Source of the DNA: Escherichia coli
Lineage (GTDB): Bacteria; Pseudomonadota; Gammaproteobacteria; Enterobacterales; Enterobacteriaceae
Length of the DNA: 64,000 nt
Assembly (NCBI RefSeq): GCF_041248615.1
Contig: NZ_CP158425.1
Strand: one strand, 5' to 3'
The translations under genes and the position numbers were made by a program. Positions within the stretch are counted from its first letter, which is position 1, and each line of letters opens with the position of its first letter. The notes under the pieces were generated by a model. It did not search any database. It was not told the origin of the DNA and worked only from the letters and a program-made list of their open reading frames with translations. Below are positions 28,892 to 29,211 of the stretch, one piece after another.

Positions 28892-29211
28892 CAGTTAGTC
28901 ACATTACGAATAACCCGGCTTACTTTCGCATGTGCGTTCCCCTGCATGTTAAAGTAAAGCCCTCCGGGCAGACTCGTCGCCCACTTAACGCCTCGCTCAG
29001 CCATACGCTTCGGTGTTTCCAGCCAACCACGAGGAATATTGCCCGGAACGTTACCGATAACCCGTCAAATGCATGCTGCTACCCGGATGCCGCCGGGAAT
29101 ATCGCATTTGGATTCAACAATATGCATGACCTCAGATAAAGCACCATGCCGCTGGACATGATCGCCAATGTGCAACTCGATAGGAGAAGCCATTTCTGAA
29201 TCTGACTTCAT
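28892..29211 (-). pseudogene. about 106-codon ORF interrupted by one in-frame TGA
   Basis: Hand translation from ATG (29209-29211, AAGGTGG RBS) reaches TGA at 29065-29067, then stays open in the same frame to TGA at 28892-28894. Confidence 0.25.

Follow-up and report, generated by a model that had tools for sequence, protein, structure and literature searches.

The whole stretch of DNA analyzed here, a 64,000-nucleotide segment of Escherichia coli contig NZ_CP158425.1 (the window), belongs to a large IncHI2 resistance plasmid. Over the 901 bp around the locus under study, the sequence matches many E. coli IncHI2 plasmids of approximately 200–290 kb with 100% identity, among them pMCR_W5-6, with which the window is collinear save for three insertion/deletion differences (window positions ~14400, 18124–19432, and 38248–40168). 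An IS150 copy located beside hok in pMCR_W5-6 is missing from the window, and two segments of ~1.3 and ~1.9 kb are additional in the window. The locus is positioned immediately downstream of the gene for a 416-aa orphan DNA methyltransferase, in an extended minus-strand array of short open reading frames (ORFs), most of them unannotated, that separates the traD transfer region from repHI2. The array (window ~4400–38200; L004 4399–38389) comprises ~45 small ORFs, nearly all on the minus strand, and its contents include the orphan DNA methyltransferase, a Hok toxin, a RelE/ParE toxin, an HNH endonuclease, and a 794-aa PAPS-reductase-family protein. Just outside the array, the plus strand carries another methyltransferase gene (L004 39555–40316).

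At the locus, a minus-strand frame opens with an ATG at 29211..29209, runs for 48 sense codons to an in-frame TGA at 29067..29065, and stays open for another 57 sense codons before it closes with a second TGA, giving a total of 107 codons (29211..28891). Direct reading of the minus strand bears out the frame described in a first-pass annotation, which had reported a good ribosome-binding site (RBS), 48 codons, a TGA at 29065–29067, and 57 further open codons. The terminal stop, placed by that annotation at 28892–28894, was one base off and is located at 28893..28891. The features of the locus are as follows.

29218..29224, minus strand: Shine-Dalgarno-like AAGGTGG with a 6-nt spacer to the ATG; the same in the intact-allele plasmid pMY504-1
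29065..29211, minus strand: N-terminal stub of 48 codons plus the premature TGA; RefSeq hypothetical protein WP_001426334.1, aligning to residues 1–48 of the ortholog
29065..29067, minus strand: premature stop TGA at codon 49, with C as the next base; the ancestral codon is TCA (Ser)
28891..29064, minus strand: C-terminal remnant of 57 sense codons plus the original TGA stop; encodes (L)Y(F/W)N(V/I)QGNAHA
28839..28874, minus strand: terminator-like hairpin (28874..28849), then GTCGTTTTCC; the same in pMY504-1
28834..29139, plus strand: antisense ORF of 101 codons; a by-product of the mutation, no gene

The hairpin, GCGGTG-T-AAAAG-tta-CTTTT-CACCGC, starts 16 nt past the terminal stop and is followed by GTCGTTTTCC, and together these elements resemble a terminator of the original gene. 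Its outer arms (GCGGTG..CACCGC) occur just twice in the whole window. The stability of the hairpin is unexceptional (fold z-score of −1.5), and it was missed by a simple terminator scan. A promoter scan of positions 28300–29700 returned zero promoters, and the sole terminator call in that region falls within coding sequence. In the RefSeq annotation, the locus is represented by the 48-codon stub alone, a protein found on at least 1000 contigs. The last 37 codons of the remnant (28891–29004, minus strand) are annotated in some records as the hypothetical protein pHNSHP45-2-orf00027. Public records keep the stub and the 37-aa piece as separate hypothetical proteins, neither of which is flagged as part of a pseudogene.

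Composition alone gives a 57-codon open stretch a chance of ~0.045, which is weak evidence. It is homology, rather than ORF statistics, that identifies the feature as real: the joined translation can be aligned over its full length to intact proteins of 100–106 aa. In pMY504-1, a member of a diverged, R478-like IncHI2 clade with 92.8% identity to the window over 901 bp, the same locus is occupied by a single 106-aa coding sequence, WP_000834113.1. A nucleotide alignment of the two plasmids shows TCA in place of the premature TGA, with the RBS, start, stop position, and hairpin unchanged, and 97 of 106 positions in the joined product of the window are identical to WP_000834113.1. The window copy is therefore the same gene, sharing the RBS, the terminator-like hairpin, and the place after the methyltransferase gene; it differs from the WP_000834113.1 family by the stop at codon 49 and by six to eight lineage-specific replacements. 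IncHI1-type plasmids encode a 102-aa ortholog with ~70% DNA identity, likewise right after the methyltransferase gene. Immediately downstream of this IncHI1-type ortholog lies a RES-toxin/Xre-antitoxin pair (L003 3034–3914; L009 3387–4288), which is absent at that position in IncHI2 plasmids.

The protein family is small, with 18 hits among 5.8 billion proteins and 22 representatives among 1.84 billion in a profile search, the weakest of which is a spurious PKD-repeat protein. Members are mostly full-length proteins of ~100 aa, some of them N-terminally extended, and the exceptions are a few frameshifted or partial sequences. In the extended homologs (152–175 aa), the extra portion contains no recognizable domain. 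The most conserved block, L-Y-W/F-N-V/I-Q-G-N-A-H-A, is located in the C-terminal half. Searches with the intact protein against Pfam, NCBIfam, PHROGs, and PADLOC gave no significant match, and neither a profile search of PDB sequences with the family nor tblastn against phage genomes produced a match. Two distant homologs (at loci L005 and L006) reside within one-directional arrays of tiny unannotated ORFs, and a homolog on a Salmonella Winslow contig adjoins an ISL3 transposase. Another distant homolog, P0014 (L011 5390–6312), is encoded on a phage-like 61.8-kb contig between genes for a Sf6-type small terminase and a P22-type portal protein, which indicates that the family is common to plasmids and phages. 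The family, which is unnamed, is an accessory gene of mobile elements and is confined to plasmids and phages.

Across 13 outgroup homologs, residue 49 is serine in 12 and alanine in one, and never cysteine. The R478-like IncHI2 clade and the homologs from Xenorhabdus and S. Winslow have TCA as the corresponding codon, and the IncHI1-type ortholog has TCG. Given these outgroup codons (TCA, TCA, and TCG), the stop is derived, and the change is a single C-to-G transversion. The suggestion in the first-pass annotation of a nonsense pseudogene, to be checked by a search for intact orthologs lacking the TGA, is upheld by the TCA codon of WP_000834113.1 and by the Ser or Ala residue in 13 of 13 outgroups. 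Its description of the event as recent holds in part: the stop arose after the two IncHI2 clades had separated, yet its clade, with ~588 sequenced plasmids, is already fixed for it.

The distribution of the two alleles was examined in PLSDB and in E. coli RefSeq. The exact 55-mer that carries the TGA is present in 587 PLSDB plasmids, and 395 others differ from it by at least one base. A sequencing or assembly error can be dismissed as the source of the TGA, given that the 55-mer around it recurs identically in all 587 of these independent records. A tblastn search of PLSDB with the intact protein separated three classes: 392 records with at least 99% identity (intact class), 588 in the 90–95% band (window-allele class, in which 25 of 25 sampled rows were at exactly 91.5%), and 59 at 60–80% (distant-ortholog class). 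At least 99% identity to the window was seen for 243 records in E. coli RefSeq, and a further 10 had the 90–95% identity of the diverged clade; the one inspected among these 10, pMY504-1, has the intact allele. In the listed samples, the hosts of the intact allele are mostly Enterobacter, Citrobacter, and Klebsiella, and those of the TGA allele mostly Salmonella and E. coli. The stop is fixed in one successful IncHI2 clade.

The same mutation accounts for the plus-strand ORF at 28834..29139, which could in principle be the real gene at the locus, given its 101 open codons in the window. Since TGA and TCA are each other's reverse complement, a single change closed the minus frame and opened the plus frame, and this is the only reason that the ORF is open. 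The corresponding frame contains stops in pMY504-1 (a TGA, at the same codon), in the IncHI1-type ortholog, and at the loci of both distant homologs in tiny-ORF arrays (L005 and L006). Homology resides entirely in the minus frame, and RefSeq does not annotate the ORF. The plus-strand candidate, which exists only in the TGA clade and meets stops at the orthologous loci, was rejected; the probability that it is the gene is close to nil. The first-pass annotation had entertained better support for this ORF as a reason to abandon the minus-strand reading, but the ORF is interrupted in the intact-allele clade and in other orthologs.

If the gene is inactive, constraint on its sequence would be expected to have relaxed. 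The two IncHI2 alleles differ at 14 nucleotides, and with the stop codon left aside these comprise 8 non-synonymous and 5 synonymous changes. The resulting pN/pS is 0.49 for the gene versus 0.00–0.26 in seven flanking genes, a borderline excess from small counts (Fisher's exact test, gene versus flanking genes: p = 0.05, or p = 0.03 when the nonsense change is counted). At six replacement sites (residues 5, 8, 26, 56, 83, and 89), the state found in the window occurs in none of the 13 outgroups, and the sister allele retains a family state. All six replacements that could be polarized thus map to the branch leading to the window (binomial p = 0.016); two other sites are ambiguous, and none is clearly derived in the sister. 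Upstream of the stop, the window-branch replacements are T5S, V8A, and F26S (0 of 13 outgroups each). The downstream half differs from the sister clade by four replacements, of which T56P, E83G, and I89M are likewise found in 0 of 13 outgroups. With three of the six window-branch sites located upstream of the stop, the stub seems to be drifting too. In addition, rare stub variants change the nearly invariant residues V19 and A45.

These observations suggest that selection has been relaxed across the whole gene in the TGA clade, although the numbers are small and provide support rather than proof. Sequence variation within the TGA clade is essentially zero, so that within-clade selection on the downstream half is unreadable. 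An intact allele of the window type, which would place the replacements before the stop, was sought; none was present among 40 cluster members or implied by the PLSDB counts. Polarizing the synonymous differences with the outgroups gave no result, the sites being saturated.

The structural consequences of the truncation were assessed with an AlphaFold2 (AF2) model of the intact protein built from the family alignment (mean pLDDT of 90.5, pTM of 0.82). The model is a single-domain SH3-like β-barrel with strands at residues 3–8, 18–21, 24–35, 42–51, 86–91, and 97–103 and two short helices within residues 67–80. Of the 28 invariant columns in the family, 11 are located after residue 73. Relative to this model, the 48-residue stub is missing the last two strands of the barrel, the pair of helices, the invariant YxNxQGNAHA motif, and those 11 invariant columns, and as judged from the predicted fold it would be able neither to fold nor to function. 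Fold searches returned matches to domain I of EF-P/eIF5A and to other SH3, Tudor, and KOW barrels, all of them at the level of the fold only.

The predicted likeness to domain I of EF-P and eIF5A, a KOW-like SH3 barrel, is similarly limited to the fold. No sequence relationship is detectable: an hhalign comparison with E. coli EF-P gave a probability of 0.3%, and there is no Pfam match. In EF-P/eIF5A domain I, the equivalent hairpin tip bears a modified lysine or arginine. The family protein differs in that it is a single domain without OB domains and its tip loop (residues 36–41) is free of Lys and Arg. The tip of the long β-hairpin in the model (residues 36–43) carries a conserved C-D-[IV]-P-G-G-[IV]-R sequence.

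Taken together, the feature is very probably a fixed nonsense pseudogene of this unnamed mobile-element protein family. According to this model, the ancestral gene would have encoded a 100–106-aa single-domain protein with an SH3-like barrel, downstream of the orphan methyltransferase gene on IncHI plasmids. In the window's own IncHI2 clade, whose hosts are chiefly E. coli and Salmonella, a C-to-G change then converted Ser49 (TCA) to TGA. Translation from the intact RBS would now stop after 48 residues, yielding a stub that, without the C-terminal strands, the helices, and the motif, is expected to have no fold and no function. The remaining 57 codons would still be open because there has been too little time for further stops to arise.

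An alternative model would retain a function for the full-length frame, with UGA-C serving as an expression attenuator whose leaky read-through yields a low level of full-length product, with Trp or another residue at position 49, under selection. In its favor, the TGA is followed by C, a weak termination context, the 57 downstream codons remain open, and a very successful plasmid clade is fixed for the allele. UGA-C is said to be the weakest termination signal in E. coli, reportedly from work by Poole, Brown and Tate in 1995; a literature search on the UGA-C context in E. coli returned eukaryotic papers only. The C was, however, inherited from the ancestral TCA-CGG and not newly selected, and an open downstream frame is expected of a young pseudogene anyway. 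The stop codon is conserved in no diverged ortholog, and a sense codon occupies the position in all lineages outside the one IncHI2 clade. The fold of the 66 nt from the TGA is no more stable than that of shuffled sequences (z = −0.35), with no Rfam match at E < 1, and conserved residues have been replaced in both halves (T5S, V8A, F26S, T56P, and I89M). Moreover, position 49, inside a barrel strand, is occupied in every homolog by a small side chain (Ser or Ala), such that Trp would fit poorly. Functional read-through is consequently very unlikely. As a programmed feature, the read-through site proposed in the first-pass annotation is not supported, given the restriction of the stop to one clade, the lack of a structure that stands out downstream, and the loss of conserved residues on both sides. 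Leakiness of UGA-C as such may still allow a little full-length protein, with a different residue at position 49, to be made.

The in-frame TGA with an open frame beyond it could also be read as a site of selenocysteine insertion or other UGA recoding. The 66-nt fold contains no SECIS-like hairpin after the TGA, and Rfam offers no match. Selenocysteine is further disfavored by the aligned residue in the homologs, which is Ser (12) or Ala (1) and never Cys, and by the hosts, which are Enterobacteriaceae with the standard code. On account of the missing SECIS-like structure, the missing Rfam match, and the absence of Cys at position 49 in homologs, the selenocysteine reading was rejected, and the likelihood of any recoding is negligible.

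Alternatively, the disrupted gene could have become a functional microprotein or a split protein, comprising the 48-aa stub by itself or with a second, 37-aa C-terminal piece translated independently from Met70. The intact RBS and start codon and the annotation of the stub in RefSeq are compatible with this, as is an in-frame ATG at 29004 that opens the 37-codon ORF over the conserved C-terminal motif and is annotated in some records. Nevertheless, no more than ~3.5 of the six strands of the barrel are predicted for the stub, conserved residues have been lost within it (T5S, V8A, and F26S), and its rare variants alter V19 and A45. The ATG at 29004 has no Shine-Dalgarno sequence and is positioned 21 codons past the stop, where reinitiation would be unlikely. 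A functional stub or split protein is therefore highly improbable.

A separate question concerns why the pseudogene became fixed. Conceivably, adaptation of IncHI2 plasmids to E. coli and Salmonella favored its inactivation, which would then not be neutral, as could happen if the protein is costly there or triggers a host defense; we consider this doubtful. Hints of recurrent loss come from two other disrupted alleles, in Enterobacter roggenkampii and in pPSV (see below). Were the idea true, the fixed TGA would mark a host shift, and the intact family would be a novel type of accessory factor of plasmids and phages.

The locus has the hallmarks of ordinary bacterial nonsense pseudogenes: a single-base stop, intact orthologs in the sister lineage, an open remnant, tentative signs of relaxed constraint, and fragments annotated separately. 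It is of the same kind, and its one unusual aspect is that the broken allele is not sporadic: it is fixed in the IncHI2 clade that has been sequenced most widely (~588 PLSDB plasmids). No new mechanism is revealed; this is an ordinary broken gene. With regard to annotation, WP_001426334.1 and 37-aa pieces such as pHNSHP45-2-orf00027 would be better marked as one pseudogene. The TGA also provides a clean single-base marker that distinguishes the IncHI2 clade sampled chiefly from E. coli and Salmonella, including pHNSHP45-2, in which the 37-aa fragment is annotated, from the R478-like clade, sampled chiefly from Enterobacter, Klebsiella, and Citrobacter. More generally, this conserved small protein appears to be dispensable for IncHI2 plasmids to persist and spread in E. 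coli and Salmonella.

The surroundings of the gene invite comparison with the leading-region anti-defense islands of conjugative plasmids, which contain small co-directional ORFs of unknown function, orphan methyltransferases, and toxin–antitoxin genes (PMC11541004). The resemblance of the IncHI block to these islands is one of gene content. The family protein itself has no PADLOC match and no known or predicted anti-defense activity.

Disrupted alleles also occur elsewhere in the family. Frameshifted versions are represented by P0004, P0008, and P0017; each occurs in only one to three sequences, assembled from metagenome or Logan data, and could be an assembly error. In pPSV (NZ_LR881935.1; L009 3001–3318), the IncHI1-type allele is frameshifted after about residue 59. 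An R478-type allele in Enterobacter roggenkampii (P0045, WP_425655532.1, 5 contigs) has been cut off independently after residue 89. Such independently disrupted alleles hint at a recurrent loss of the family.
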